Shown in pieces: positions 1 through 17,154 of a stretch of 42,636 bases of DNA. The translations under genes were made by a program, and so were the position numbers. The notes beneath the pieces were generated by a model. The model did no database searches. It saw only the letters and a list, made by a program, of their open reading frames with translations, and was not told the DNA's origin. Source of the DNA: Silvanigrellaceae bacterium (GTDB lineage: Bacteria > Bdellovibrionota_B > Oligoflexia > Silvanigrellales > Silvanigrellaceae); the NCBI GenBank assembly GCA_049423385.1, contig JBMSQQ010000020.1, positions 1 to 42,636 on the forward strand, read 5' to 3'. Positions within the stretch are counted from its first letter, which is position 1; every line of letters begins with the position of its first letter.

Positions 1-104
1 TCAAAGCGTGCCGGCGTGTGGTCGAGTGCAATCTTGCTGCAGCCTGGCAAAAGCAAGGCCAACACTGCGAGCACTGCCGAAAGGATTGAAGATGTTCTTT
101 TCAT
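1..104 (-). CDS. Lipoprotein, N-terminal fragment (runs off the left edge); next gene of the motor-like operon
   Basis: Not in the ORF track. ATG at 104 overlaps the upstream TGA (101-103) as ATGA. Translates MKRTSSILSAVLAVLALLLPG-C-SKIALDHTPARF: basic N-terminus, hydrophobic core, lipobox. Confidence 0.75.
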   Translation of the reverse strand, partial: MKRTSSILSAVLAVLALLLPGCSKIALDHTPARF

Positions 105-1894
105 GAACCAACAAGATCCACCCAACGCAATTTTTGCGCAGAGTATTCATCCACCAGATTCTCGGAAAGCTTGTTGCGGGCCATGTTGGAGTCGCGGCGG
201 GAGTTCGATGCCGCAGCTGCCAGTGCGTTCGCAAGTGACGATGGCATCGCTTTTTTGAGCTTTTCCCTGAAGTCCTGATGCTGCTCGGAGATCCAGGCGG
301 CCAGGCTCGCAATGTCTGTGTTGAGCATCAACGCAGTGCGTTGATCTGCCGTCAAGGCCAGCAACATGTCCGGGAAAAACACATACAGCATCCAATCCGG
401 CGGCTGCCCACCATGAAGTTTCAGCGCCTTTTGAACAAGTTCGCGCCGCAGGCTCGCCGGTATCAACGGAAGCAGGATAGAGAGAGCTGATGCGGCGTTG
501 ATCTCTTGTCCATGATCCGATGACTCGGAGTGATTCGTGATTGCAGGGACGGGCTTTCCATCGCAAACACTGCGCGCAGCCTTCAGAATATTGGCAAGAT
601 CATCGCGTGTTGCGCGATTGGAGCGCAGCAATTCCGAGGCATATTCGGAACGTTCGACGTCTGGCATCAACAAAGCGGTGGATTTTTGATCTGCACCTGA
701 AAGAAGTGAAAACAGAACTGCACCCAGACGCTTGGGCAATGTGGTCATCAAATTGCGAATCCCGGCGGGACCAAACTCCTCGTGAATGCGTTTGTAAATT
801 TCCGCGTCACTTTGAGAAAGAATCGTTGCTGCCAGGGCATGCTGGTTGAGAATCCGGTAGAACTCGGCACCCGAAGGCAATGCATCCGGAGCTGCATCCT
901 TCAAATATTCGCTGAATTCGAGTTTGCGCTTTGCAAATTCTCCATCTTCGGGAAACTCTGGCTTCACAAGGCCATCGAACTCGAGAACCGCCTTGGCCAA
1001 CATCGCATAATCGCCATCACGCAACCAAATCAGGAAAAGAGAACCCAAAACCTTGGAATCCTTTTCGATGCGCGAACGCCAAAGCATGGAATGTTCCGCA
1101 ACAAATGCTTTTTCAATTGTCTCAACATCAAGAATTGTGTTCTTTTCGGGGTTTGGCTGGATTTCCTTCAAATCCACAGGCTCCGGCTGCGGCGCCGTGA
1201 GCGTGGCCTCCATGAGTTTTTCCTCTACCGTTTTCACACCGAGGCGGCGCCATGCCCAGATCAAAGCCAACACGCAGAGTGTCAGCAACACTCCACCCAA
1301 CATGCCCGGAATATAGGGCAGCACACTCAACCAAAATTCACGGAAAAGGCCTTCTTTGCCAATCTCGGATCCAACTCCCTTGTCGTCAGAAGCACTTTTG
1401 TCCTTGCCTGGAGTTGGAGAAACAGAAGCCGTGGGAATCGGCGTTGGAGTGTTCTTGAGAGAATCAGGCAATGGCGGAAGCTGCTTGGCATCCACGGTAA
1501 CAACCGTAAATCCCTTGCCCAGCTTCTGTTCAAGCCGGCGGACCAACGTCAGTCGATCCTTTGCTGGAATGCTTGTCTCGGTCGCCAGTTCGCAGCGCGC
1601 GCCCGTCAGATATTCCTGGGCTTCAACCGCACCTGGTCCACGGTCGTCCCCAATCCCCGGCAGTGAACCTTGTTTGGGTTTGTCGGTTGTCGCGTGCGAC
1701 ACATAAAAGCAGCCACGAGAAAAGCATTTGTCCGATGGGCAATCCTGACTCAAGGCCAGTTCAAATTGATTCTCGAGCCGCTTGAGTTCGGCCGCAACGG
1801 AAGGCGGAATGTTGCGCTCGGGAACACCGGGCGCCGCAAAAGCCATGCAGGTTGTTGTGAGTCCAAGAAGCACCAAGAATAAATTCACAGCCAT
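101..1894 (-). CDS. Membrane-anchored protein with FliG middle- and C-terminal-like cytoplasmic domains (597 aa)
   Basis: Likely start ATG 1894 (GGAG upstream). Signal peptide ending AFA, Cys-containing exported domain, Pro/Thr linker, TM helix (VLPYIPGMLGGVLLTLCVLALIWAW-RR). Then GPAGIRNLMTTLPKRLGAVLFSLL...MPDVERSEYASELL (FliG-M-like) and VFFPDMLLALTADQRTALMLNTDIASLAAWISEQHQDFREKLKKAMP (FliG-C-like), matched by eye. Confidence 0.65.
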   Translation of the reverse strand: MAVNLFLVLLGLTTTCMAFAAPGVPERNIPPSVAAELKRLENQFELALSQDCPSDKCFSRGCFYVSHATTDKPKQGSLPGIGDDRGPGAVEAQEYLTGARCELATETSIPAKDRLTLVRRLEQKLGKGFTVVTVDAKQLPPLPDSLKNTPTPIPTASVSPTPGKDKSASDDKGVGSEIGKEGLFREFWLSVLPYIPGMLGGVLLTLCVLALIWAWRRLGVKTVEEKLMEATLTAPQPEPVDLKEIQPNPEKNTILDVETIEKAFVAEHSMLWRSRIEKDSKVLGSLFLIWLRDGDYAMLAKAVLEFDGLVKPEFPEDGEFAKRKLEFSEYLKDAAPDALPSGAEFYRILNQHALAATILSQSDAEIYKRIHEEFGPAGIRNLMTTLPKRLGAVLFSLLSGADQKSTALLMPDVERSEYASELLRSNRATRDDLANILKAARSVCDGKPVPAITNHSESSDHGQEINAASALSILLPLIPASLRRELVQKALKLHGGQPPDWMLYVFFPDMLLALTADQRTALMLNTDIASLAAWISEQHQDFREKLKKAMPSSLANALAAAASNSRRDSNMARNKLSENLVDEYSAQKLRWVDLVGS

Positions 1895-1913
1895 CACTCC
1901 CAACGTTTCAGCT

Positions 1914-2543
1914 TCAATAAACCCTGACAACAACCCGGCGATGTCGCGCAAGCCGTTCGTCATCGTTCAATCCAGCCAATTCCGATTCCGGAAGTGGCTT
2001 GGTGTCTGCATAGGCTTCAACCCGAATATGGTCTCGCGGAATTCCGTGTCCCTCAAGTCTGGAACGCAATTCAATGGCACGTGAACTCGCAAGCTCCCAG
2101 TTCGAGGCAAACTTGCCGGCACCTTGAACAATCGGGGTGATGTCTGTGTGCCCCTCAACCGCAAATGAATACTTTTTTCCATAGGCGGACAACGTTTTGA
2201 AGAGGCTGTTCAGGGTCTGTTCCCATTCTCCACGGATGGCCGCGCTCCCCGAATCGAACATGATTCCGGAGTTGAGGGAAAGCGCCAATCCTTCATCATT
2301 GAGGTTGGTGCGCACCACTTTCTCAAGTCCCGCCTCCTTGATCTTTGAGTCTATTTCCTTCTGAATCGATTCAAGGCTCTGCGAACTTTCGGCTCCACTC
2401 AGGTTACGGGCTATCTGCTGCATCTTGACACGCGAGATTTGCGCAGCCGACAAAAGCATCACGAAGAACAACAGAAGATTCGTGATCAAGTCCGCATAGG
2501 ACAACAACCAACCTTCTTCAGATCCTTTTGTCCGACGCTGCAT
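1914..2543 (-). CDS. motB: MotB-family stator protein (TM plus OmpA-like peptidoglycan-binding domain)
   Basis: WLLSYADLITNLLLFFVMLLS with the conserved Asp; VEGHTD, SNWELASSRA and RRVVVRV OmpA/MotB motifs. Confidence 0.9.
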   Translation of the reverse strand: MQRRTKGSEEGWLLSYADLITNLLLFFVMLLSAAQISRVKMQQIARNLSGAESSQSLESIQKEIDSKIKEAGLEKVVRTNLNDEGLALSLNSGIMFDSGSAAIRGEWEQTLNSLFKTLSAYGKKYSFAVEGHTDITPIVQGAGKFASNWELASSRAIELRSRLEGHGIPRDHIRVEAYADTKPLPESELAGLNDDERLARHRRVVVRVY

Positions 2544-2546
2544 TCC

Positions 2547-3248
2547 TCAGCCCTCCGCCAGGAGGTCGTTCACGCTCTTCTGGCACCGCTCAACCATTCC
2601 GATCCGCTCATCGAGGAGCGTATTGAGGTAGTGACTGATGGGTCCGGCAATTCCGGCACCAAATGCGACTCCATAGAGTGTGGCGGTCAATGCAAGCGAC
2701 ATGGCCGTTCCGATGTTTGTGTTGTCTGAAGTCATGTTCTTGAAAAGCTGTATCATGCCGGTGATGGTACCCACCATGCCAAAGGATGGTCCAAGCTTGG
2801 ACAACATTTCCCAATTGTGGATGGCCGGTTGCATTCTCTCGATTTCATCATGCCGAAGTTCGGTGAACACCTTTTCCGAAGAAGCTCCGGCGGCGCGGCG
2901 CAGCAAAAGCTGGACAAACAGTTTCGTCGACTCGAAATTCGATTTGTCCAAAAACTCGAGCACCTGCGATTTCTTGCCTTCACGCCAAAGAACGCAGATC
3001 TTTTCGCGCTCTTCATCCATCTTCATTGTCTGTGATGAAAATCCACGCATGCCGGGAATGAATTCCCTGAGGCATGTGAGTGTTCGCAGCGCAGTCTTGC
3101 TGCTTGAGCCCAACAGCACCGCTGCAGCACAACCCACCAGAACCATCACAAGGGCATGTGGATCGAATGCTGAAACCTGCGTCATGTTGCGCGAGCTGAA
3201 ACCAAGCGCAATCACCGCGAACAATAAAAATATTCCAAACAACTGCAT
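2547..3248 (-). CDS. motA: MotA/PomA-family stator protein (MotA/TolQ/ExbB channel)
   Basis: Four hydrophobic segments; GPSFGMVGTITGMIQLF and IGTAMSLALTATLYG match MotA/PomA TM3 and TM4; cytoplasmic WREG...LE; directly upstream of motB. Confidence 0.88.
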   Translation of the reverse strand: MQLFGIFLLFAVIALGFSSRNMTQVSAFDPHALVMVLVGCAAAVLLGSSSKTALRTLTCLREFIPGMRGFSSQTMKMDEEREKICVLWREGKKSQVLEFLDKSNFESTKLFVQLLLRRAAGASSEKVFTELRHDEIERMQPAIHNWEMLSKLGPSFGMVGTITGMIQLFKNMTSDNTNIGTAMSLALTATLYGVAFGAGIAGPISHYLNTLLDERIGMVERCQKSVNDLLAEG

Positions 3249-3270: not shown

Positions 3271-3918
3271 TTATTTTTTGGTTCTCTGCAAATCCTCAAG
3301 TTTCTTGCGCACAGTCGAATCGCTCTCGATCTCCTCGGACTTCTCCCAGGTTTCGATCGCTTTTTCCTTCTCACCCATCAAGAGCAGAATAGAGCCCTTC
3401 GCACGCAAAAACTCGGGATGTGAGGGATATCGGGCGAGGACAATTTCAGCATACTCCAACGCCAACGAGTAATTCGCATTGCGAATAGCCTCCTGCATCA
3501 GCGTTCGCGAGCGCGAGACGCTCACGTCCGGAGCTGATTCATTCACTTTCAAACCGCGTTCGCGATATGCTTCATTCAAAGATTTGTCGGCAGGTCCCGG
3601 CGGTGGCGGAACAAGCCGCGAGGTTGGTAAAACCTTGACTTTCTGGTTATCTGTCGAATGTTCAATGATCACCCTCTGCGAAGACGCAAGCATCGGAACA
3701 TCCACTTCAGTCATGACTTTGCCATCGTTCCAGCGGACTTTGAGGGCTGTTGTGGAACCAGCAGAATAGGCCTGCAACGGCTTGCCCTCTTCCTTGAGGG
3801 CCTCATTCCGCTGCAAAGGAGCATCCAATAGGTAGTGGGTGTAGTTGCGTGGCGAGGTGCAGCCAAGACAAACCACGAAAATCAACCCATACTGCATCAA
3901 CAAATTTCCTGATTTCAT
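3271..3918 (-). CDS. TPR-containing lipoprotein
   Basis: Lipobox-like CLG-C; C-terminal TPR pattern (NYSLALEYAEIVLARYPSHPEFLRAKGSILLLMGEKEKAIETWEKS); ATGA overlap with the upstream gene. Confidence 0.75.
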   Translation of the reverse strand: MKSGNLLMQYGLIFVVCLGCTSPRNYTHYLLDAPLQRNEALKEEGKPLQAYSAGSTTALKVRWNDGKVMTEVDVPMLASSQRVIIEHSTDNQKVKVLPTSRLVPPPPGPADKSLNEAYRERGLKVNESAPDVSVSRSRTLMQEAIRNANYSLALEYAEIVLARYPSHPEFLRAKGSILLLMGEKEKAIETWEKSEEIESDSTVRKKLEDLQRTKK

Positions 3919-4898
3919 GGCACCACCGGCAGCAACGAAGAGTTCAAGGTTGAAATTCCAATCCCAAGCCTACCATTCGTGGAAAAGAAAATGTTCAAGG
4001 CGTAATTCCCATTTAAAATCGGAAAAGGAACCCGGGCAATGCCAACGAGCGTCAGTAAAGGGTCAAATCCGTCAACGGAAGTGCCACCAAGATTCCGGGT
4101 CAGTGATCGAATGAGTGCGGTCGGCACACTCATCAACAACTTTCCGCCCAACAATGAATTTTCCAACGCCGGAAAAGCTTCCGCATAGGTTGCACCCAAG
4201 CCCAGAACTGGATCGAATGCGGACAACGAAACCCCGAAAAACCGCTGATTGAACTGTCCCCACTGCTCGAGCCAATCCACTGAAAAATGCTGACCGGGGT
4301 AAACCCCCAGATCGAACACCGTGTGGGTCAGGCTCTCGCCGCGTTGCCTTCTCAGCAAATCGCGGGCAGCCGTATAGTTCCGTTGACTACGGGCTTGCGA
4401 AACGAGCGACGGACTCACGTTTTGTGCGAAGACAATCTTTCCGGTCGCAAGAGAAACACCCCGCACTGAAATCCCTTCAATGGTTTCGCTGAACCACCAC
4501 CCCGTTTGAGCGGGCGGTGAACTGCCTCTCATGGCATTGTCGAAGTCGGCAATATCGGTGAGCGTCATGCTGTCTGGGGAAACGAGTTCCATGCCTTGGT
4601 CGCGGACTTTACTGTACGTTGCTCCACAGCCCTCGCAAAAGCGAATACCGCTGTCTCTGAGAGCTGTTTGCAACGAACGCACAGAACGCACCACGAAAGA
4701 ATTTCGGCTTTCCTCAAATGCAGGACTCGCCTTCACAAGAATCGCAGGCAAATATTCACTGCTGTTCGTTGACTTGTATTCCAGCTGGTCGCGCAGAATT
4801 TCTTCGAAGCGAAGAAAGGCATCAGCGGTTGTCGGACGCTGTGCCCAGGCCATGCTCGAAAAAAATACCGCGACCACGGTTGCGATTTTCAGAACCAA
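3915..4898 (-). CDS. Secreted envelope protein with CxxC, a TolB-N/CsgG/FlgT-like segment and a beta-rich C-terminus
   Basis: Signal peptide (AWA-Q), GGAGG RBS, FCEGC, ISVRGVSLATGKIVFA; alternating amphipathic strands in the C-terminal half. Confidence 0.6.
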   Translation of the reverse strand: MVLKIATVVAVFFSSMAWAQRPTTADAFLRFEEILRDQLEYKSTNSSEYLPAILVKASPAFEESRNSFVVRSVRSLQTALRDSGIRFCEGCGATYSKVRDQGMELVSPDSMTLTDIADFDNAMRGSSPPAQTGWWFSETIEGISVRGVSLATGKIVFAQNVSPSLVSQARSQRNYTAARDLLRRQRGESLTHTVFDLGVYPGQHFSVDWLEQWGQFNQRFFGVSLSAFDPVLGLGATYAEAFPALENSLLGGKLLMSVPTALIRSLTRNLGGTSVDGFDPLLTLVGIARVPFPILNGNYALNIFFSTNGRLGIGISTLNSSLLPVVP

Positions 4899-6139
4899 AA
4901 TCCGACCTCCATTCCAGCGGTCTGGAACACGAACGGTGAACCAAGATTCAGGTAGCTGCCAAAATTCGCCGATCCCGAGAAACTTGGCATGGCTTCAAGA
5001 AAAAACGACATACTGACCCTGTTCTTCACACGAGCCTCCAAGCCGAGCCGATAACTTGCGAATGAGGCTCGTGCCCCGCTCAGGTTGCGATCAGCCAGAA
5101 CTTCGGCAACATTCAACGTGCTGTTTCGAAATGCTGCCGCACTGTTGCCTCGCAGGTTGACAACCCCTCCACCCAGCACAAGATACAAATCAGGCTCGGT
5201 CATGGATCGCATGCGTCCTGAAATCAGTCGGGAAAACCGACCACCCGCGAGCCACCCATCATGCGAGTCGACCTGATTGGTGAACCCGAGGTGGAACTCA
5301 CCGGTCCACACTCGCGATTGTGTAAATGCGGCTTCAGCACCTGCAACAATCCAGACCATTGGAGGAACAGCCACCAGAGTCGAGGTGGCCTGTCGCCCCG
5401 AGGTCACATCCTCCCTGTTGTCGGGCACGGCATAATTGGAAACACTGACCCGGAGAGGAAAGGAAAAGAAAGGTCTTTCGCGCAAAACGGCAAGGTATTC
5501 AGCGCGAGCTTCGGCAACCGTCTTGAGATTGGATGGCTGCCTCAGAAGAGAGGGAGATGTGGTAGAACTGGCGATCGTCCGCGCAAAGACTATTGGCAAG
5601 TTGTCGCGGATTTCAGTGATCCGGCCACGCAGGACCAACTGCGACTTCTCTGCCTCGAAATCCAGAAAAACTGCATGCTTCGCCACCGAATTTGCGCCCG
5701 ACTTTGCAAGCACATCGTTGAGCTGCAGACCACGGGCCATCACCGTCCCATTGGGTGAGGAGTGCGTGACGAGCGCCGTGCAATCGGGACAGTGAATCAA
5801 ATCGATACCGGTGTCGCGATTCTGCACAACAAGTTCTGCAAAATGATTTTCGAGATATGCAGAAAGACCGGCGCCAAATCCGTAGGGCACTCCAACGCCA
5901 GCAAGAACCACGTTCGTTCTTGCCTGAAAAATCGGGTTCGATTTCAATCCAAAAACAAATTCATCGAGAAGATCAGCTGCCATCAACTGAAGTTCTGCAG
6001 CAACAGCCGTTCTCGCGTCGACCAGCTGGATCGATTCATCCGGTGTCGCAAATTCCGCAGCATTTGATTTGCCGGCGGATAGAAACGCCATCAAAGTCAT
6101 CAGCAACAATCGAAAACAGCGTCTATTCACAGCAACCAT
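4889..6139 (-). CDS. Putative outer-membrane protein: CxxC N-terminal domain plus C-terminal beta-barrel
   Basis: Signal peptide (SNA-A), HCPDC, amphipathic beta-strands, terminal EVGFWF (BAM-type C-terminal Phe). Start could be 6145, 6139 or 6130. Confidence 0.62.
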   Translation of the reverse strand: MVAVNRRCFRLLLMTLMAFLSAGKSNAAEFATPDESIQLVDARTAVAAELQLMAADLLDEFVFGLKSNPIFQARTNVVLAGVGVPYGFGAGLSAYLENHFAELVVQNRDTGIDLIHCPDCTALVTHSSPNGTVMARGLQLNDVLAKSGANSVAKHAVFLDFEAEKSQLVLRGRITEIRDNLPIVFARTIASSTTSPSLLRQPSNLKTVAEARAEYLAVLRERPFFSFPLRVSVSNYAVPDNREDVTSGRQATSTLVAVPPMVWIVAGAEAAFTQSRVWTGEFHLGFTNQVDSHDGWLAGGRFSRLISGRMRSMTEPDLYLVLGGGVVNLRGNSAAAFRNSTLNVAEVLADRNLSGARASFASYRLGLEARVKNRVSMSFFLEAMPSFSGSANFGSYLNLGSPFVFQTAGMEVGFWF

Positions 6140-6771
6140 TGCCAATCACCCGTGTTTGAACAAAGTCCGGCATGCCAGATCGTTTCTGCCGGATTGAGCT
6201 GAACGATACCCAGTACTTTCTCTCCGCCCTTGATTCCACCTGCAAATTCCTCGCAGAGGATCGGCATGCCATCGACAATTCTGGCCTGCTGGAATTTCTG
6301 GATCCCGAAAGCACTCAACACCGGCGGCAAATCGAGCACGGATTCGTGCAATTCTGCCAAATGCGTCTTTGCTGCGTTCGCAATTTTTTCGGCAACAACA
6401 ACATCGGAATGAATCACCTCAACACGCCAAATCGTGTTGGATGGTGACTTCAACCTGGCTGCCTTGACCAACTCTGGCACAGTGGTCGAAATGGAAGCCA
6501 ACAGTGCTTCAACCCGGGCAGGACGATCGGATGTGGCCACCACACGGGAGCGGCAGTCAATAACATCTTCACCAATAAATATTCCCCGCGCAAAGCCTTC
6601 CCGGTTTGCCGCGAGCAGCCTTTGCCTGGCATTTTCCCCTGTGAGCAGCGCACACTCCCTCTCGGATGAATCGCCATTGGTCCCACTGAAGACACCCGGC
6701 CCCGGATCAAGAAACCCACTCAACAGCAACGGCAATCCAAGGTAAAGACTCATCAGGACAATAGCCAGCAT
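6127..6771 (-). CDS. Hypothetical membrane-anchored or exported protein
   Basis: N-terminal hydrophobic helix, four Cys, TGATG coupling to the upstream gene and overlap with the downstream gene. Confidence 0.65.
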   Translation of the reverse strand: MLAIVLMSLYLGLPLLLSGFLDPGPGVFSGTNGDSSERECALLTGENARQRLLAANREGFARGIFIGEDVIDCRSRVVATSDRPARVEALLASISTTVPELVKAARLKSPSNTIWRVEVIHSDVVVAEKIANAAKTHLAELHESVLDLPPVLSAFGIQKFQQARIVDGMPILCEEFAGGIKGGEKVLGIVQLNPAETIWHAGLCSNTGDWQWLL

Positions 6772-7520
6772 CAGTTGCCACCCTCTGATGGGTTCTTCGC
6801 CAATTTGAGTGCCAGCTGTCGCGTGCCCGCATTCATCACGACCTGACTCAATTGCCGGTGAAGATCCCTGGTCATCAGCCTGTCGGCAGTTCCTTCAACG
6901 ATCTGCTCTTCCTCGCTTCGAAAAAGAAAATTTGCGATGGTATTGAGCGCCAGATATCCAAATCCCGTGTATTCAATAAATCTCAATTGAAAAGATTGAT
7001 CGGCAAGAACAAAACCACTCTCGTCACGAACCACGATGCGTTGTTCATCGGTGAAGTCTTCAATCTGCGGGACGAGAGTCAATGTGTAGAAGGACAAGGG
7101 TCCAAGCCAGCCATTCCGCAAAATCCGAACCCGCTTGGCCGACAACTCGACAATCAGTTTGGAACTGGGCAATCCCGTCTGGGCGCCCGCCGGCTTGGCA
7201 ACCGGTGGAGTTTCCCCCTCCGATTTGCCGGTATCATCGGCAGTGCTGTCTTCTTCGTTGGGCTGATCAAGTTGAACCTTGGCACTCTGCCTCTCAAGTG
7301 CCTCGGAAACGTTTCGGCACAAGTTGTCAGCATCCTCGGGCTGAAGGAGCGCACCCGAAAAGCATTTGAGATGAATTGTCATTCCCTCGAAATTGGCTTT
7401 TCGAACATCTATCCCGACCGGTTGACGGAGTGCGCTCAAAGGCTGATAGACGACCGTCAAGCAAGCGCTCAAGCAAGACGAACCGACAACAAACATCGCC
7501 ACCCGGAGTCCCGAATTCAT
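6771..7520 (-). CDS. Hypothetical lipoprotein (249 aa), first gene of the motor-like operon
   Basis: Start reassigned to ATG 7520 (MNSGLRVAMFVVGSSCLSA-C lipobox). The longer ORF to 7829 overlaps the divergent PilZ gene. Confidence 0.7.
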   Translation of the reverse strand: MNSGLRVAMFVVGSSCLSACLTVVYQPLSALRQPVGIDVRKANFEGMTIHLKCFSGALLQPEDADNLCRNVSEALERQSAKVQLDQPNEEDSTADDTGKSEGETPPVAKPAGAQTGLPSSKLIVELSAKRVRILRNGWLGPLSFYTLTLVPQIEDFTDEQRIVVRDESGFVLADQSFQLRFIEYTGFGYLALNTIANFLFRSEEEQIVEGTADRLMTRDLHRQLSQVVMNAGTRQLALKLAKNPSEGGN

Positions 7521-7737
7521 CTGGTTCGCACCCTTGACTATCTGGAATTGTTGCATATTTTTTACCAGTCCAAGGACTGCACCGCAAGCTCCCGGGAGCC
7601 AAAGAAACTGTCGATGTCTGGGATGCGGACCTCTTGCCGGGCAATTAAATCCGACCAAAAACATAACACTGGCAACTTCAGTTTCTCGACGCAGACGCCG
7701 AATCTCCACAGGATGAAACATCATGGGGAGAAGGGCT

Positions 7738-8196
7738 ATGTCGGTTTTTTCAAAATTCTCGAAATATGCCAGTGAAAACGGCGAGAGCGGCGGAGACTCT
7801 GCCCAACCCCTCAAGCGCGCGAAGCGCATTGAAAGTCATGCCCTCGTCGATGTGAAACTGAGCGCATGGAATCCTTTGGCAGTGGCCAGCGCTGTCTTGC
7901 TTGACCTGTCCTGGCAGGGTTTCAAGATTGAGTTCGTCAATCCTGTGAAGATCAAAACAGGCTCACGCCTGACAATGAGCGTACCGTTGGCCTCGTTCGG
8001 AATCCTTGCCCCTGCGCGAGTCAAACTCAAAATCCAGGTCAAGTGGTACGATGCACGCATGGCACGCGCCGGAGGCATCTTTGAGCCGGAAAGCCACGAA
8101 CAGGATTATCTGATCCAAAAGATTATCGACGTCCTGACCCTCCGTGGCGCACCCGAGGATGGTGGACAATTCACGCAAACTCCACGCGCCTCCTGA
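7738..8196 (+). CDS. PilZ-domain protein
   Basis: KRAKR followed by DLSWQG (DxSxxG) and VKW...AGGIF, typical PilZ pattern; GGAG RBS before ATG 7738. Confidence 0.8.
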   Translation: MSVFSKFSKYASENGESGGDSAQPLKRAKRIESHALVDVKLSAWNPLAVASAVLLDLSWQGFKIEFVNPVKIKTGSRLTMSVPLASFGILAPARVKLKIQVKWYDARMARAGGIFEPESHEQDYLIQKIIDVLTLRGAPEDGGQFTQTPRAS

Positions 8197-8262
8197 TCTG
8201 GACGATTGCCTTGGCCTCCGGTAAAGCGTTTGACACCACGTCCGCTTCGGAGGATTTTCTGA

Positions 8263-8958
8263 GTGTCTCCTGTATCGCCTCAATTTCCGACCCCAGGCTC
8301 TTGCTTCGTTGAAGCAACCCAGTCCCAATTGCACAAGACTTTGGGTTCCGCTTTCCGCGCTCCCATCCTGGGACTCGAAGACTGGAGGGTGTCGCAAAAC
8401 GCGTCGGACAAAATGATGGAACGTCGAGGTTGGATTCAACCACTCTGCGCAGCAACAACCACCCCTGAACAAATCGCCGGTCTCTCCATTGGCACAGAGC
8501 GCATCTACATTCCGGGCGAGTTTTGTCGTCAGGGAGATGTCTTGTCTGCAGCAGCGGAGTCGGAAAGATTGATCCTGCTTGAACGAGGCGCCTTTCTTGC
8601 GCCGAACGACATCATTCGTGCGGTTGAAAAACTCGGAGAAGCAAAAGGCAGGGTTATTTTGGTCGAAGCAGGGTCCTCTTTTGGTTACTCAGATCGCGTG
8701 CTCGATCCTCGTGCTCTTGAAGTGGTCGCCGATTTGGGTTGTCCTGTGGCACTCAACATCAACTCGCTTTCGAAATCCATCGGTGCTCCTTACGAACACC
8801 GTCCGCAATGGCTGGCAGACAGCAAATTCGATTTAGCCTACGTTCGCACTGCATTGGCATTCCGACTGCACTATCTCATTCTCCCGTCCAACCGTGAGCT
8901 CCATCCGTCGGCGTTGGATCTTTGGATGTCTGAAAAGAGGAACAGCAATCATGTTTAA
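8263..8958 (+). CDS. Degenerate KdsA/DAHP-synthase-like protein (probable pseudoenzyme)
   Basis: ILLERGAFLAP and VILVEAGSSFGYSDRVLD align with KdsA KKGQ and LCERGTSFGYNNLIVD, but the catalytic motifs are missing. GGAGG RBS before GTG; overlaps the kdsA start. Confidence 0.65.
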   Translation: MSPVSPQFPTPGSCFVEATQSQLHKTLGSAFRAPILGLEDWRVSQNASDKMMERRGWIQPLCAATTTPEQIAGLSIGTERIYIPGEFCRQGDVLSAAAESERLILLERGAFLAPNDIIRAVEKLGEAKGRVILVEAGSSFGYSDRVLDPRALEVVADLGCPVALNINSLSKSIGAPYEHRPQWLADSKFDLAYVRTALAFRLHYLILPSNRELHPSALDLWMSEKRNSNHV

Positions 8959-9769
8959 AAACGGCTGGAGCGGACAAATTCATCCTGCGACAACTCTCTC
9001 GAACGCAAAGCTCACCATCATTGCTGGTCCTTGCATGTTTGAAAGCAGGGAATTGGGATTTGAAGTTGCTCAACGCTTGAAAGCCCTTTGCAGTGAGCTG
9101 GGATTCAATTACGTTTTCAAAAGCAGCTACGACAAGGCCAACAGAACGAGTGGAAACACGGCCCGGGGACCAGGCCTCGAACGCGGATTGGCGTGGTTGT
9201 CTGAAGTTCGAAGTGAACTCTCCATACCCGTCCTCACTGACGTCCACACACCATCCCAGGCAAAGGAAGCTGGAACAGTCGTCGACATCGTTCAGGTTCC
9301 GGCATTTCTGTGCGACCAAAAAGATCTTCTCAAAGCATGTGCCGAGACAGATAAAGTTGTTCAAATCAAAAAAGGGCAACATGCACCCACGGAGCAGCTC
9401 ATTTCATGTGCGGATTACGTTGCCACCTGTGGCAATTCCAAAGTCCTGCTCTGCGAGCGCGGAACTTCATTTGGTTACAACAATCTTATTGTTGATTACC
9501 GCAATCTGATTCTCATGAACCGTTCGGGATATGCGACCGTCTTCGACGGCACACACGCGGCCCAGCTCCCCGGAGCGGGTGGTGGACAGTCATCAGGTTT
9601 GCGTGACATGGTTCCGGGACTTTGTGCAGCAGCTGTCGCTGTGGGAATTCACGCACTCTTCATGGAAGTACACCCGAATCCGGCAAAGGCACTTTCGGAT
9701 GCCTCCACGCAGGTTGATTTCACGACAGCCGAGCAAATTCTTCGCAATATCAGGCGCATCAGCAACTGA
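8951..9769 (+). CDS. kdsA: 3-deoxy-8-phosphooctulonate (KDO8P) synthase
   Basis: IAGPC, FKSSYDKANRTS, LTDVH, QVPAFLC, KKGQ, ERGTSFGY, DGTH, EVHPNP...SD. Confidence 0.96.
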   Translation: MFKNGWSGQIHPATTLSNAKLTIIAGPCMFESRELGFEVAQRLKALCSELGFNYVFKSSYDKANRTSGNTARGPGLERGLAWLSEVRSELSIPVLTDVHTPSQAKEAGTVVDIVQVPAFLCDQKDLLKACAETDKVVQIKKGQHAPTEQLISCADYVATCGNSKVLLCERGTSFGYNNLIVDYRNLILMNRSGYATVFDGTHAAQLPGAGGGQSSGLRDMVPGLCAAAVAVGIHALFMEVHPNPAKALSDASTQVDFTTAEQILRNIRRISN

Positions 9770-9869
9770 CATACTGTTTTGTTGGTGATTGCGTCCAATT
9801 CTTAAACCTCTGAATTTGTAGGCATTAGAAACATTCCTTCATTTCAGCCAAGAAGATTCACTCATCCTC

Positions 9870-9897
9870 TGAAGTTAGACGAATTTTGGGCCGATAA
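9870..9897 (+). promoter_or_regulatory. Sigma-28 (FliA)-like promoter
   Basis: TGAAGTTA-N12-GCCGATAA (perfect -10 box), 40 bp upstream of the 9938 gene. Confidence 0.55.
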
Positions 9898-9937
9898 GAC
9901 CCAAGAGATTTCTCGGAAATTTCAGAGGGAAAAGAGA

Positions 9938-13169: not shown

Positions 13170-13778
13170 TCACTCTCCTCGTTTCAGAAAATCCCGAAGC
13201 TTCAACAAACTGCTTTGATGCAAACGTCCCAGTGCAAAATTCACGAGTGCCGCGGGCAAAAGTCCGCCAGGCTCCACATGGGAAAAGAATACCACACGTG
13301 AACTGTTCTCGCTCACCTCAGAAACCGTCCAGCTGCCCGCCATCGCATCAATACGGACGACCCCGTCCACCAGCGGAACCACATCCTGCTGCTTCGAAAG
13401 CTCTGCGTGATACTCGTTCCTTGAAGAATTAAAAGATGTTTTTGCCAAAAAAACAACGTCACGGTCGGCCACGGGCCACAGCGAGTTGGTTCGCATGTAG
13501 ACGATTCCATCATCAGGCACGGGCCGGCTGATGACGTACGATTCGACACAACTGTAGACCCATTTCCGACACGTCTCAGCCGAAACAATCACGGAAAATG
13601 CTCTTTTTGGAGAAACCGGCACAAGAATTTCGCCACGCGCCTGTTTGTAGCGGGAACCTGGTTTATCCTGGGTCCAGACCTTGACCCCATCGACATCTAT
13701 CTCAAGTTGCCACTCATCGTTTGCGGCACGCGCGGTGTCTGGCAAAAAAACAAGCAGCAACACAGCGAGTCGTTTCAT
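13170..13778 (-). CDS. Secreted START/SRPBCC lipid-binding domain protein
   Basis: Signal peptide; W...DGVKVW, LWPVADRDVV, HVEPGGLLPAALVN. Confidence 0.88.
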   Translation of the reverse strand: MKRLAVLLLVFLPDTARAANDEWQLEIDVDGVKVWTQDKPGSRYKQARGEILVPVSPKRAFSVIVSAETCRKWVYSCVESYVISRPVPDDGIVYMRTNSLWPVADRDVVFLAKTSFNSSRNEYHAELSKQQDVVPLVDGVVRIDAMAGSWTVSEVSENSSRVVFFSHVEPGGLLPAALVNFALGRLHQSSLLKLRDFLKRGE

Positions 13779-15898
13779 GCCGCCTTCTCCTCCTCGGCTT
13801 GGCCAAATGCAGTTTCACGTTTCGACCAGCGGAAAAGTACGAGTGTGACATCATCACTCAAAGTATTGCCACCCGCCATCAACTTTGCCAAATCCGCACG
13901 CACTGTCTCAACGAATGTCTCGGGCGAACCACTTTTTTGAAACAATGAAATCAAATCGCGCCGCCGCGACGTGGGAGCACCCAACTTCAATTTCTCTCGC
14001 GCCTCGTTGTATCCATCGGTGTAGAGCATCACGGAGTCGCCAGAATCAAGGTATTCCTCGATGTGTGAAAATGTGCCTCCCGAGAGGCCCATCAGGGGGC
14101 CGGATGAAACCATGGACTCCAGCACGCCCCTGTTCTTTCTCCAAACCATCGGAAAAGGGTGTCCTGCATTGACGATCGTCAGCTTGCCGGTTTCCTCTTC
14201 CAGTGCAATCAGGCACATGCTCACCCAGCGGTCGCTTCTCGCCCCGGTCTTTCGAACAACATCGTTGATGACCTCAGCCGTGTGAAGAAGTCTTTCACAC
14301 GGCTCAATCCGCACGCCGGTCGACGCATATTCGGTTTCAAGTGACGCAACAGCTCCGCAGACGACACCCGTCAACAGCGCAGATGGAACGCCGTGCCCCG
14401 TCACGTCTCCGATGTAAAAATAGAGGACCTTGTTTATGGGATCATGCGTGTGCCAATACCAGTCTCCACCCACACGTTCGGCAACCATGTAACAAGTGGA
14501 GATATCGACAGACGACGTAAGGTTCCTGGGTGGCAAAAGAGTTTCTTGAACGGCATTTGCCGCCAGAAGCTCTGATTCTATTTGTGCCCGCTGATTGGCA
14601 CTCTCAAGCGCCCTCTGTTGAGCGCTATCCTTTTCGTTCCGCATGATGTTTATTTTATCTCCCAGGGCAAACGACAAAAGCACAACCTCAACGGCTGAAC
14701 CAAACAAAATTCCATTTTGGGTCAGAAACGAATGCGGGAAAAAGCCGAACTGGCCAAAACTGAAAAGAAGCCCACCCAAAATGAGAAATGCCCATGCCGA
14801 CAGGAACAATCGAGCAGAACGATCGCCCCTGAGGGCATTGGGCAAGGCCGACGACAGAACGAGACCCAAAGCCGAGACTTGCAGCACAAAACCAAGCTTC
14901 ACAACCAACACATCAAACCAAAGTGCAGAAACAACAAGTTGAACCAAAACCGTCGCAAGCAGAAACTTCATCATCCGGGCAAGATGAATCGACTGTGCCG
15001 AAATTTTCAAGAACGAATCGGCAAACAGGAGCGTAAACAAAAGCCCCAAAGGAGCACTCGATGACAATTGTCGTTGAGCCCAGAGGGGAGAGTCTGGCCA
15101 AAAGAAATGATTGGAAGCCCCCAACAAACCAACGAAACAAAATCCATGAAAAAAAGTGATCGACCCCACGTACCAGAGGTAACTTTTGTCGCGCACGACG
15201 AAAAAAAGAACAAAGTTGTAGAGAGCCATGACGACAATGACACCAAAATAGAGACCAAATGCCAGATACTCGAGAAGCTGGTGTCGCTGAAAACTCGTCG
15301 CATCCCTGATCACGGGCAAATAAGACTGTTGAATCGCCCTCGCCTCGACCAAAAATGTGGCTTTTGTTTGTGCAGCAATGGTTGTTGTAAAGGTCACATC
15401 ACGATCGATGACGGCTTTCGAAAAGCCAGGCACCAGAACACCACCTGCCCCCAGTTCGATAGCTTTTCCGTCATCGCCAATCCGAAAAAACCTGGCGCTG
15501 TCGATCAACGGATTGCCGAGCGACATAAACATTTTGGTCTCCGCAGAACCTTCGTTCCGCAAATCAAAACGCAACCAAAAAGTGCCGGACTTAAATCCAA
15601 GATTTGGAGCGACACTGATCAGGCCGCGAAATGAACCCGCAGCTCCGGAAATGATCTGCTCAACCCGCCAGCGCGATTCCGGATCGAAAAGATAACCAGA
15701 ACAATTGCCAATCTGGAACGAGTATTTTTCAGCCTGCAGGGTGATCGTTCCATCGCGACACAGCTCACCGGCTTGGGCGTTTGAATTTTTCAGAAAAGCG
15801 ATCACAAAAATCAACAATGCCAAGCACGTGCTTCTCGGCGAGAATCCCAATGGAAAGCTTCGCACGCGAATTCGATTTTGTAGCCTTGGGCCGTGCAC
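13775..15898 (-). CDS. 7TM-DISM sensor with SpoIIE/PP2C phosphatase domain
   Basis: 7TMR-DISMED2 (PNLGF...FWLRF), 7TM (LYFGVIVVMALYNF...SFALGDKI), SpoIIE motifs GGDWY, GDVTGHG, NAGHP, YTDG, DDVT. Confidence 0.9.
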   Translation of the reverse strand: MHGPRLQNRIRVRSFPLGFSPRSTCLALLIFVIAFLKNSNAQAGELCRDGTITLQAEKYSFQIGNCSGYLFDPESRWRVEQIISGAAGSFRGLISVAPNLGFKSGTFWLRFDLRNEGSAETKMFMSLGNPLIDSARFFRIGDDGKAIELGAGGVLVPGFSKAVIDRDVTFTTTIAAQTKATFLVEARAIQQSYLPVIRDATSFQRHQLLEYLAFGLYFGVIVVMALYNFVLFFVVRDKSYLWYVGSITFFHGFCFVGLLGASNHFFWPDSPLWAQRQLSSSAPLGLLFTLLFADSFLKISAQSIHLARMMKFLLATVLVQLVVSALWFDVLVVKLGFVLQVSALGLVLSSALPNALRGDRSARLFLSAWAFLILGGLLFSFGQFGFFPHSFLTQNGILFGSAVEVVLLSFALGDKINIMRNEKDSAQQRALESANQRAQIESELLAANAVQETLLPPRNLTSSVDISTCYMVAERVGGDWYWHTHDPINKVLYFYIGDVTGHGVPSALLTGVVCGAVASLETEYASTGVRIEPCERLLHTAEVINDVVRKTGARSDRWVSMCLIALEEETGKLTIVNAGHPFPMVWRKNRGVLESMVSSGPLMGLSGGTFSHIEEYLDSGDSVMLYTDGYNEAREKLKLGAPTSRRRDLISLFQKSGSPETFVETVRADLAKLMAGGNTLSDDVTLVLFRWSKRETAFGQAEEEKAA

Positions 15899-15933
15899 GA
15901 CGCCGTACCTCGCTGCAGCCGGTTCTATTTGTG

Positions 15934-15960
15934 ATATCGGGGATTTCCGGCGAAAGTTAA
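15934..15960 (-). promoter_or_regulatory. Sigma-28-like promoter
   Basis: Minus strand TTAACTTT-N11-CCCGATAT, about 35 bp upstream of the 7TM-DISM gene. Confidence 0.4.
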
Positions 15961-16066
15961 CGTCCCGGGATCAATTCAATAGAGTTGTCTTGAATCGATT
16001 CTCGGATGAAAAACCCAAATTACGGATAGCTGAGGAGAAAAGACTTTTCAGCGAACGACAAAGTGT

Positions 16067-17011
16067 TCAGCCATCGAACCGTTCGACCAACAAATGCAAA
16101 CTTCTGCCAAAGGGCCCAAAATACTTTTTGAAATCCAAAGCGTGGGAAGGCGACTTGGGGGTTACGGCCAGCATGCCCACAAAATTGCCCCGACCCTGAC
16201 TCCAAACATGCAAGTCACGCACCACGTGACCATCGCGCTCGATACTCGTGCGGATGTCGTCCAAGGACAAGCCCACAGGGTGCGCATCCAACAGTTCCCA
16301 TGCCGTTTGTTTCAGAAGGTTCCATGACCATTTCAAAATCAGCAGGGAGCCCAGAATTCCCATGACGGGATCCAAAAAACCTGCTGAAGGAAAATATTTT
16401 CCAGCAACCAACGCAACAATCGCCAAAACAGAGGTCAGCGCATCTGCAAGGACATGCATCAGCGCGCTTTCGTGATTCCTGTCAACCCGATGGTGGTCAT
16501 GATGATGGTCATGATGATGGTCATGATGATGGTCATGATGATGGTCATGATGGTGTGCTCCAGCGCCCCATCCCAGAAGCAATGCGCTCGCCAGATTGAC
16601 AACAAGCCCTACACAAGCCACCAACAGAGCTTCGCTGAAATTCACAGAAACAGGATTCATCAACCTGCGGACGCTTTCAAAAAACATCCAGAACGCAACC
16701 AAGGCAAGCAGGATAGCGCTGGTATAGCCACCCAAAGACAAAATCTTGCCCGTACCAAAATTCATCCTGCGCCGGAATCGGGTGGAGGATGTCAACAGAT
16801 AAGCCAAATAGCTGATGAACAATGCACCTGCGTGAGATGCCATGTGATAACCATCAGCCTCGAGTGCCATCGAACCCGTCAGACGACCTGCCACGATTTC
16901 ACCGATCATGGTCAGCGTCGTCAAAATAATCACCCAAAGAAGTCCTTTTTGCTTTGCCGCCATTTCATCCTGATTCAGCGTGAAAACAGATTCCTGATTG
17001 CAAACGCTCAT
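16067..17011 (-). CDS. dmeF: CDF-family Co/Ni/Zn efflux transporter, DmeF-like
   Basis: GSMALEADGYHMASH, FGTGK, His-rich loop, HVLADALTS, DLHVW; start reassigned to ATG 17011 (GGAG RBS). Confidence 0.85.
   Translation of the reverse strand: MSVCNQESVFTLNQDEMAAKQKGLLWVIILTTLTMIGEIVAGRLTGSMALEADGYHMASHAGALFISYLAYLLTSSTRFRRRMNFGTGKILSLGGYTSAILLALVAFWMFFESVRRLMNPVSVNFSEALLVACVGLVVNLASALLLGWGAGAHHHDHHHDHHHDHHHDHHHDHHRVDRNHESALMHVLADALTSVLAIVALVAGKYFPSAGFLDPVMGILGSLLILKWSWNLLKQTAWELLDAHPVGLSLDDIRTSIERDGHVVRDLHVWSQGRGNFVGMLAVTPKSPSHALDFKKYFGPFGRSLHLLVERFDG
16489..16555. repeat. 12-bp tandem repeat (gatgatggtcat; 4 perfect copies plus flanking variants) encoding an (HHHD)n loop
   Basis: Perfect units at 16501, 16513, 16525 and 16537, directly visible. 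Confidence 0.92.
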
Positions 17012-17154
17012 CACATCTCCAGCATCCGTCGATTGCAGGCATTCACGGTCGGGAGCACGGTGGGACAAAGCCGACCCGGACGCACCGTTGAATTCAAAAC
17101 ACTTTGACAATAGCATATCGGCAACAAAAGTATCACGCAAAAAAGGGCCCCAAA

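Follow-up and report, generated by a model that had tools for sequence, protein, structure and literature searches.

A candidate single-chain FliF/FliG-like protein encoded with its own MotA/MotB stator in a Silvanigrellaceae bacterium and in non-flagellated myxobacteria

A minus-strand gene of a Silvanigrellaceae bacterium (assembly GCA_049423385.1, contig JBMSQQ010000020.1) encodes a protein in which an exported domain with the fold of a ring-building motif (RBM), one transmembrane (TM) helix and a cytoplasmic part with the three-domain fold of FliG are joined in a single chain. We analysed positions 1 to 42,636 of this contig, a stretch of 42,636 nucleotides that is called the window below and to which all coordinates refer unless another contig is named. 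The gene, at 101..1963, is the last of eight overlapping or closely spaced minus-strand genes, and the same operon, with motA and motB in it, occurs in myxobacterial genomes that lack flagellin. In our reading, to which we give a probability of roughly 0.6, the protein is a natural single-chain equivalent of FliF and FliG and acts as the non-flagellar rotor or track partner of its own MotA/MotB stator in an envelope machine.

Anchor and FliG-like part in one polypeptide

The gene is real. Its open frame at 101..1963 (minus strand) holds 620 codons, and a phmmer search of 1.84 billion representative sequences returned 144 homologue clusters at E<=1e-3; 59 clusters reached E<=1e-30, and almost all of these are 550-640 amino acids long and match from end to end. 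The true start is probably at 1894 (Met24 of the 620-residue frame that begins at 1963, the numbering used here), which gives 597 amino acids; this start is favoured because it lies 19 nucleotides past the motB stop and is preceded by GGGAG, and because the homologue alignments begin at about residue 28-40. Conservation was counted in an alignment of the 59 close homologues and in a separate set of 21 members.

An AlphaFold2 model built on the 59 homologues had a mean predicted local distance difference test score (pLDDT) of 83, with values above 90 over most of the cytoplasmic part. The chain begins with a signal peptide (residues 24-43, 1835..1894), read from the sequence as a hydrophobic core ending AFA-AP and placed where the N-termini of the homologues align. 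The periplasmic RBM-like domain follows (residues 49-165, 1469..1819), delimited by the model, by conservation and by structural matches; its helices at 54-74 and 134-148 and strands at 80-93, 116-129 and 154-162 run in the order alpha-beta-beta-alpha-beta. Four cysteines, C75, C80, C85 and C124, are invariant in it (59/59 homologues and 21/21 members), as would suit an oxidising compartment. Next come a disordered linker rich in Pro and Thr (residues 166-203, 1355..1468), with pLDDT below 50 at 180-202, and a TM helix followed by WRRLG (residues about 208-241, 1241..1342), seen both as a helix in the model, at 204-241, and in the conservation. W236, R239, R240 and G242, behind the helix, are invariant in the 59-homologue alignment, and these basic residues assign the helical part of about 340 residues that follows to the cytoplasm and not to the periplasm. 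The periplasmic domain and the TM helix are highly conserved, the former being the most conserved part of the protein among the 21 members.

The cytoplasmic part opens with a linker modelled with low confidence (242-279) and two helices (280-316), together at 1022..1240. Then come a FliG_N-like domain (residues ~315-386, 806..1021), delimited by alignments with 3hjl_A, 8wo5_B5 and 8umx_B; a FliG_M-like armadillo (ARM) domain (residues ~387-469, 557..805), delimited by 3soh_B and overlapping a Pfam MgtE_N match at 367-441; and a FliG ARM_C unit with a C-terminal six-helix domain (residues 486-616, 116..508), delimited by 1qc7_B, 1lkv_X and hhalign mapping, within which the equivalent of the FliG torque helix lies at residues ~572-590. 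Since all FliG alignments begin at residue 315-317, the helices at 280-316 are placed ahead of the FliG_N unit, where they would stand in the position of the FliF C-terminal helices that bind FliG_N.

The first-pass annotation of this DNA, made from the sequence alone, had described the start at 1894, a signal peptide, an exported domain with cysteines, a PT-rich linker, a single TM helix at ~1250-1330 and a long cytoplasmic part with FliG-M-like and FliG-C-like segments. All of these elements are present where it had put them, and a FliG_N-like domain, which it had not named, is to be added.

Structural relatives of the two folded parts

The likeness of the cytoplasmic part to FliG is carried by structure. 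When the model was searched with Foldseek against 350,542 PDB chains, FliG chains took ranks 1 to 11, the best being 8umx_B (E 2.2e-3, probability 1.00); no chain among these matched at E<=0.001. VIA-align, run over 48,161 representative chains without the help of Foldseek, ranked first the C-domain of Thermotoga maritima FliG, 1qc7_B, of which residues 235-323 align with model residues 528-612 at Z 10.0 (root-mean-square deviation, rmsd, 2.5 Å; 85/89 residues; 19% identity). Residues 196-327 of 1lkv_X align with 486-616 at Z 9.3, and FliG_M of 3soh_B (113-186) aligns with 395-469 at Z 7.1 and rmsd 2.5 Å over 74/80 residues. The matches to the cytoplasmic region within the VIA-align top 50 were all FliG or MgtE (8umd_B, 1lkv_X, 3hjl_A, 3soh_B and 8gpv_A). 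The sole MgtE chain listed there, 8gpv_A, aligns to model residues 385-528 at Z 6.3, outside the C-terminal six-helix domain.

Whole FliG chains are collinear with the cytoplasmic part: 3hjl_A 7-325 with model 315-613, 8wo5_B5 5-323 with 316-614, and 8umx_B 5-328 with 317-619. Thus, the N, M and C domains of FliG are all present, in FliG order; the overall rmsd of the whole-chain alignments is high because the domains are oriented differently. The two segments that had been assigned from the letters alone, FliG-M at 590-780 (residues 394-458) and FliG-C at 110-385 (residues 526-618), coincide with the regions matched by 3soh_B and 1qc7_B, and the proposed comparison with FliG structures came out with FliG on top by both methods.

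The periplasmic domain shares its topology with ring-building motifs and matches RBM3 of the FliF S-ring (8z5v_A, Z 8.9, 92 residues, rmsd 3.4 Å; 6scn_A, Z 8.0) and the secretion ring proteins EscJ (Z 7.8), CdsD (Z 7.0) and PrgK (Z 6.8). The loop between its first two strands (L101, P102, G103 ... Q116) is conserved and modelled with low confidence; its position is what we take to be the site of the beta-collar in FliF RBM3. For oligomer prediction, four copies of residues 46-175 were modelled with a custom alignment and three controls. The score was 0.59 (0.64, 0.59 and 0.34 in the separate runs) against 0.32 for the best control; it reached the mark used for this score, as do 20/30 solved one-chain pairs and 1/23 solved single chains, a yardstick that is rough here given the custom alignment and the four copies. 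The runs share at least 90% of their contacts, with a partner pLDDT of at least 74. In the predicted interface the copies pack head-to-tail, the helix face of one (residues 70-76, 91-94, 113-120 and 131-152, including the invariant R143) lying on the sheet-edge face of the next (residues 46-52, 78-86, 125-127 and 160-171). This homo-oligomer prediction, which had been suggested at first pass, supports self-binding but does not show it; a head-to-tail geometry, if real, would be what a ring or a filament needs.

The stator genes and the rest of the operon

Directly upstream of the FliF/FliG-like gene, on the same strand, lie motB (1914..2543) and motA (2547..3248). The MotB product has a plug and an OmpA-like peptidoglycan-binding domain (Pfam MotB_plug 5.9e-14, OmpA 9.2e-12), with Asp18 in its TM helix, and its best NCBIfam matches are MotD/MotB/MotS. 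MotA is a four-TM stator A subunit of the flagellar type (Pfam MotA_ExbB 2.7e-16); among NCBIfam models it scores 1e-16 with the flagellar motor protein and 1e-13 with PomA against 0.007 with TolQ, these scores being below the equivalog cut-offs. P154 and P203 are kept in 20/20 orthologues. The cytoplasmic loop carries a basic residue at position 93 in 20/20 orthologues and an acidic one at position 101 in 18/20, eight residues apart and at most one alignment position away from E. coli R90 and E98 (numbered from the MG1655 genes). The role of this pair, and of FliG R281, D288 and D289, is described in PMC12505986. It had been proposed at first that MotA keeps its charges in the stretch REG...LE; these very residues are less constant (R89 in 11/20; E98 in 8/20, with Asp in 4 more), and the well-kept charges are those at 93 and 101 instead.

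Upstream of motA, the operon continues on the minus strand with a tetratricopeptide repeat (TPR) lipoprotein (3271..3918; lipobox LGC, Pfam TPR_16 2.2e-6), kept in synteny, and with an exported protein whose N-terminal domain has an invariant CxxC (3915..4898). The next gene (4889..6145; model pLDDT 79.5) encodes an outer-membrane protein made of an LpoB-like periplasmic domain (LpoB 4q6l_A, Z 9.5) and an eight-stranded OmpA/OprF-like barrel (OprF N-domain 4rlc_A, Z 15.7, rmsd 2.5 Å over 127 residues). Its N-domain and that of the 3915..4898 product are paralogues (hhalign E 3.4e-5 over 127 columns), LpoB/TolB-N-like and with the invariant CxxC in common; neither product found a Pfam, NCBIfam or credible PDB sequence relative. 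We count both as OmpA-like outer-membrane barrel proteins, the barrel having been modelled for the 4889..6145 product. The first two genes of the operon, at 6127..6771 and 6771..7829, encode conserved exported proteins without any family match in the library scans. The latter is a probable lipoprotein that would start at about 7520, a later start taken from the sequence and from the query ranges of the tblastn matches.

Domain library scans detected neither FliM nor FliN in the operon, and no flagellar gene in the 42.6-kb window. Apart from the FliF/FliG-like protein and the stator, the operon products carry signal peptides or lipoboxes, as read from the sequence; since these other products are exported or membrane proteins, the MotA loop is the only other cytoplasmic domain that the operon encodes, and it would be the natural partner of the FliG-like part.

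Two further minus-strand open reading frames (ORFs), at 7963-8472 and 8876-9382, were examined for membership of the operon and excluded from it: they have no family match, and tblastn found them in 0/20 of the host-phylum loci described below; the plus-strand ORFs overlying them look more gene-like. On the plus strand, a frame of 157 amino acids at 7723-8196 is oriented divergently to the first gene of the operon. Some 6 kb past the operon (13775-19473), the minus strand encodes a fusion of a 7TMR-DISM receptor with a SpoIIE phosphatase, and the plus strand a CHASE2 adenylate/guanylate cyclase.

Distribution of the operon and its relation to flagella

A homologue of the FliF/FliG-like gene at E<=1e-10 was found in 30/131 genomes of the host phylum and in 3/13 genomes of the host genus, the host included. 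Synteny within the phylum was examined by tblastn in 20 loci from 20 genomes. The FliF/FliG-like gene and MotB were present in 20/20, while MotA, TPR and the homologues of 3915-4898 and 4889-6145 were each found in 19/20, the lone miss being at a contig end. These six genes form the core of the operon in the phylum. Ten of these loci are collinear, and in the other ten a divergent motAB lies upstream of the barrel genes.

A wider scan of genomes with a 12-row alignment gave 59 loci, mostly from Myxococcota and a minority of them labelled otherwise, which take in Hyalangium versicolor, four Archangium species, and metagenome-assembled genomes of Archangiaceae, Myxococcaceae and Bradymonadia. 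The order of the eight genes is constant across them as far as the contigs extend, and genes are missing only at contig ends: the FliF/FliG-like gene is present in 59/59, MotB in 57, MotA in 55 and TPR in 54, followed by 50, 49, 47 (6127-6771) and 44 (6771-7829). The MotA, MotB and TPR proteins of the window share ~60-65% identity with their Myxococcota counterparts, a level also seen with their relatives in the host's own family. The MotA and MotB sequences of 77 loci were concatenated for a FastTree phylogeny, with the paralogous modules as root and with support values and other roots not examined; in it, the Myxococcota clade lies inside the collinear group of the host phylum, adjoining the lineage of the window. 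Taken together, the 60-65% identity, the carriage by 3/13 genomes of the genus and the nesting of the Myxococcota suggest that the operon may have been transferred between phyla.

The system is not part of the flagellum. Flagellin_N was found in 0/4 operon-carrying myxobacterial genomes (Archangium and Hyalangium, 12-13.8 Mb), and none of the four holds a canonical FliG, with just weak FliG_C matches in other frames of 570-689 amino acids. In the host, fliG (E 5.4e-41) and fliF (E 3.5e-54) are separate genes on other contigs. Canonical FliG is present in 50/61 sampled genomes of the host phylum and in 5/5 of those sampled in the host genus, host included. The 3.5-Mb host genome contains five MotB_plug genes.

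Further genes for FliG-like proteins, some of them beside motA and motB, were seen in these genomes. A second module of the host lies on contig C59 (7038-12580). The gene for a 773-amino-acid protein is followed there by motA, motB, a gene for 314 amino acids and one for a HAMP-SpoIIE phosphatase, and a TPR gene is divergently oriented; the 773-amino-acid protein has the topology of the window protein, with a leader, a periplasmic part with a long coiled coil, a TM helix and a FliG_C match at E 1.7e-6. A soluble FliG paralogue of 320 amino acids with Pfam matches to the N, M and C domains, distinct from the canonical fliG on contig C21, lies on contig C96 (6210-7172) beside priA and a cobW-like gene, and a further FliG_C frame, cut by the contig end, lies on contig C117 (7984-8553). 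Two Archangium genomes encode a different protein of 570-577 amino acids with FliG_C scores of 30.9 and 29.5 bits, above the Pfam cut-off, directly preceded by TPR, motA and motB (about 6400-9900 of these loci). Hence the arrangement of TPR, MotA, MotB and a long FliG protein exists in more than one protein family in non-flagellated myxobacteria.

Sequence profiles and the case against the reading

So far as architecture and context go, the reading of a fused anchor and rotor, put forward at first pass, is supported, and the strict linkage to MotA and MotB and the presence of the operon in flagellin-less genomes strengthen it; the function itself we infer. A number of observations weigh against it, among them the sequence of the cytoplasmic part. 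The window protein scores 10.5 bits with Pfam FliG_C (E 0.78), below the gathering cut-off of 23.3. The family profile, when compared with the PDB, reaches FliG only at E 0.3 (5tdy_B) and 1.7 (3ajc_A); its top match there, the ribosomal protein uL4 at E 0.036, was judged to be due to chance, as was the one match that phmmer returned for the single sequence against the PDB. NCBIfam has no family for the window protein. Aligned by hhalign with 28 FliGs of the same phylum (from 31 loci, three of which were dropped without a FliG ORF under the motif filter), the family gave a P of 0.055, though collinear. That alignment sets LPKRL opposite EHPQT and NAAS opposite GG; EHPQR is the FliM-binding motif and Gly-Gly the hinge of FliG.

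The torque helix is affected as well. E. coli FliG R281, D288 and D289 (MG1655 numbering) map by hhalign to S576, A583 and A584, and the family is acidic at 583 in 0/21 and at 584 in 1/21 members. Position 576 is basic in 10/21 members and Ser in the window protein, and Arg or Lys stands at 578, 582 and 583 in many members where the window protein has Ala. The early caveat that the usual Arg and Asp charges are missing from this helix was therefore right. The textbook charge pairs between FliG and MotA are not kept, to judge from these alignments, and any contact would have to use other residues.

Other points of this kind concern conservation and structure. The cytoplasmic part is the least conserved portion of the protein among the 21 members. 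Helical folds found at Z ~10 can be common arrangements, and a Z near 10 is modest for helical proteins. The search for a ring-building motif in the exported domain, proposed at first pass, succeeded as regards the topology and the RBM3 match; on the other side, the C-terminal domains of cation transporters score alike (MamB Z 9.0, MamM up to 9.3), so that the fold is generic and not identifying by itself, and YscJ_FliF gave no Pfam match at E<=1 in the window protein, nor is it one of the 25 families listed when the 59 homologues were scanned. Of the three oligomer runs, one reached only 0.34, and the prediction model may remember solved RBM rings.

Still within the sequence evidence, some results point towards FliG. 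Both motif pairings of the first-pass annotation (VFFPDML with MFxFEDL, DFREKLKKAMP with ELREKFLxNMS) were reproduced by the hhalign comparison with the 28 FliGs. Of the 59 homologues, 52 match MgtE_N (best 2.1e-9), 6 FliG_C (best 0.0032) and 5 FliG_M, all counted at E<=1; the window protein itself has MgtE_N at E 0.012 and 16.6 bits (cut-off 25.9, residues 367-441). The hoped-for profile similarity to FliG_M and FliG_C is thus confined to a few weak matches in the family, while the window protein stays below the Pfam cut-off. Neighbours in the protein atlas are clusters of 550-840 amino acids with FliG_C and FliG_M (from Myxococcota, Bdellovibrionota, Balneolota and Pseudomonadota), one of which has YscJ_FliF_C in 22% of its members too.

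Mechanism and alternative explanations

If the FliF/FliG-like protein is a rotor or track, the operon could work as follows. MotB would anchor to peptidoglycan, and proton flow through MotA5B2 would turn MotA, the cytoplasmic loop of which would push on the FliG_C-like domain. Copies of the FliF/FliG-like protein, linked head-to-tail by their periplasmic domains to form a ring or arc, would then move in the inner membrane, and these domains might hand the motion on to the TPR lipoprotein and to the outer-membrane proteins of the OmpA type. In its fullest form, which we put forward tentatively and consider possible without expecting it, the system would be a free-standing ion-driven rotary motor of non-flagellated myxobacteria and predatory-type bacteria, in which the operon's own MotA5B2 turns a ring and drives an output in the periplasm and the outer membrane, for example movement over surfaces, remodelling of the envelope or export. 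Such a motor could have been derived by reduction from the rotor-stator core of the flagellum, or it could be a surviving relative of the module that gave rise to that core.

Perhaps no ring turns at all. The protein could be a static scaffold or regulator, with the FliG-like part recruiting and unplugging MotAB at a fixed site and the force leaving in a Tol-Pal-like or TonB-like manner. The missing acidic pair of the torque helix, the poor conservation of the cytoplasmic part beside a highly conserved periplasmic domain and TM helix, and the lack of FliM and FliN in the operon would suit such a role, and the OmpA-like barrel, the LpoB/TolB-N-like domain and the TPR lipoprotein recall the logic of Tol-Pal. 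Nevertheless, all three FliG domains are retained, including the C-terminal six-helix domain, for which we know of no described role other than taking torque from MotA. The charges of the MotA loop are retained too, and the predicted head-to-tail packing of the periplasmic domains would suit a polymer. We consider the scaffold doubtful.

An auxiliary role in the flagellar motor of the host, as an alternative rotor or as an accessory ring, would agree with a flagellated host that has five MotB_plug genes. MgtE_N domains are also found in the E-ring proteins FlgY/FlbB/MotE, according to PMC11870540 and PMC13023049. We rejected this explanation, which is very improbable, because Archangium and Hyalangium genomes without flagellin (Flagellin_N 0/4) and without canonical FliG have this operon of eight genes too. 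Moreover, the window has no flagellar gene in its 42.6 kb, the ARM domains are cytoplasmic here and periplasmic in E-ring proteins, and only 3/13 genomes of the host genus carry the gene against 5/5 sampled with canonical FliG. A further notion, raised in part at first pass, takes the cytoplasmic region for a regulatory or ion-sensing ARM domain of the MgtE_N type that has no relation to MotA and lies near motAB through a shared envelope function only. It has MgtE_N as the best Pfam match and 8gpv_A at Z 6.3 in its favour and next to no chance of being right. We rejected it because of the FliG_C bundle: the six-helix domain at 528-612 matches FliG_C (85/89 residues) where the MgtE chain covers 385-528 instead, MgtE scores far below FliG in structure, and motAB is linked in every locus with enough DNA and in the paralogous modules.

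Significance and comparison with known systems

A non-flagellar partner of MotA/MotB would touch on two matters in the literature. Plugged MotAB stators are treated as flagellum-specific in PMC12505986, and a survey of motility loss, PMC12199754, notes rotor proteins without filaments and asks about another function for them. The operon is a concrete and conserved candidate for such a function, with a rotor-stator pair, outer-membrane partners and nothing further that is flagellar, and it occurs in the cultivable genera Archangium and Hyalangium. If rotation takes place, this would be a new kind of envelope machine, with a bearing on the origin of the flagellar motor core; if it does not, the operon shows a further use of the FliG fold with a stator. 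Full-text searches, with most subscription journals outside their coverage, turned up no account of a natural protein of RBM-TM-FliG type that is non-flagellar and has a stator of its own, nor of the envelope machine proposed here.

Among known proteins, the N-domain of MgtE and the E-ring proteins FlgY/FlbB/MotE likewise have an ARM-like superhelical unit that is recognised by Pfam MgtE_N. Theirs is a single ARM unit, whereas here three units in FliG order are followed by the FliG_C bundle, all of them cytoplasmic.

Tol-Pal, ExbBD-TonB, the AglRQS-Glt gliding machinery and GldLM are envelope-spanning machines that run on 5:2 motors. The present operon is like them in that genes for a TPR protein, lipoproteins and small outer-membrane barrels accompany those of an ion-driven inner-membrane motor, which suggests, by analogy, that energy may be transferred from the inner to the outer membrane. 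However, their A subunits are of the TolQ/ExbB/GldL type and have no FliG-like partner, while the stator here is of the flagellar type with a plug; the plug is typically missing in the non-flagellar stator relatives, according to PMC12505986.

The closest comparison is with the flagellar core, formed by the FliF MS-ring, FliG and MotA5B2/PomA5B2. The order of the parts is the same, from an exported ring-motif domain through a TM helix and a cytoplasmic tail to the N, M and C domains of FliG, which is known as the torque-receiving protein of flagella. The stator is likewise of the flagellar type, its MotB having a plug and a peptidoglycan-binding domain, and the MotA loop retains one basic and one acidic residue, about eight positions apart, near those of E. 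coli R90/E98. The differences are also clear. There is one polypeptide here and two there; one RBM-like domain stands in place of the three of FliF, the beta-collar is absent, and a cleavable signal peptide replaces the first TM helix of FliF. The acidic pair of the torque helix and the EHPQR motif of FliG are not kept, the operon comes without export gate, rod, hook, filament, FliM or FliN, and the system is found in genomes that lack flagellin.

A covalent union of FliF and FliG has a precedent from the laboratory. Engineered Vibrio FliF-FliG fusions, used in work on the S-ring, can assemble into rings, as described in PMC11481574. The covalent architecture is the same in both cases, with full-length flagellar proteins joined by engineering there and a natural, much reduced and non-flagellar chain here.

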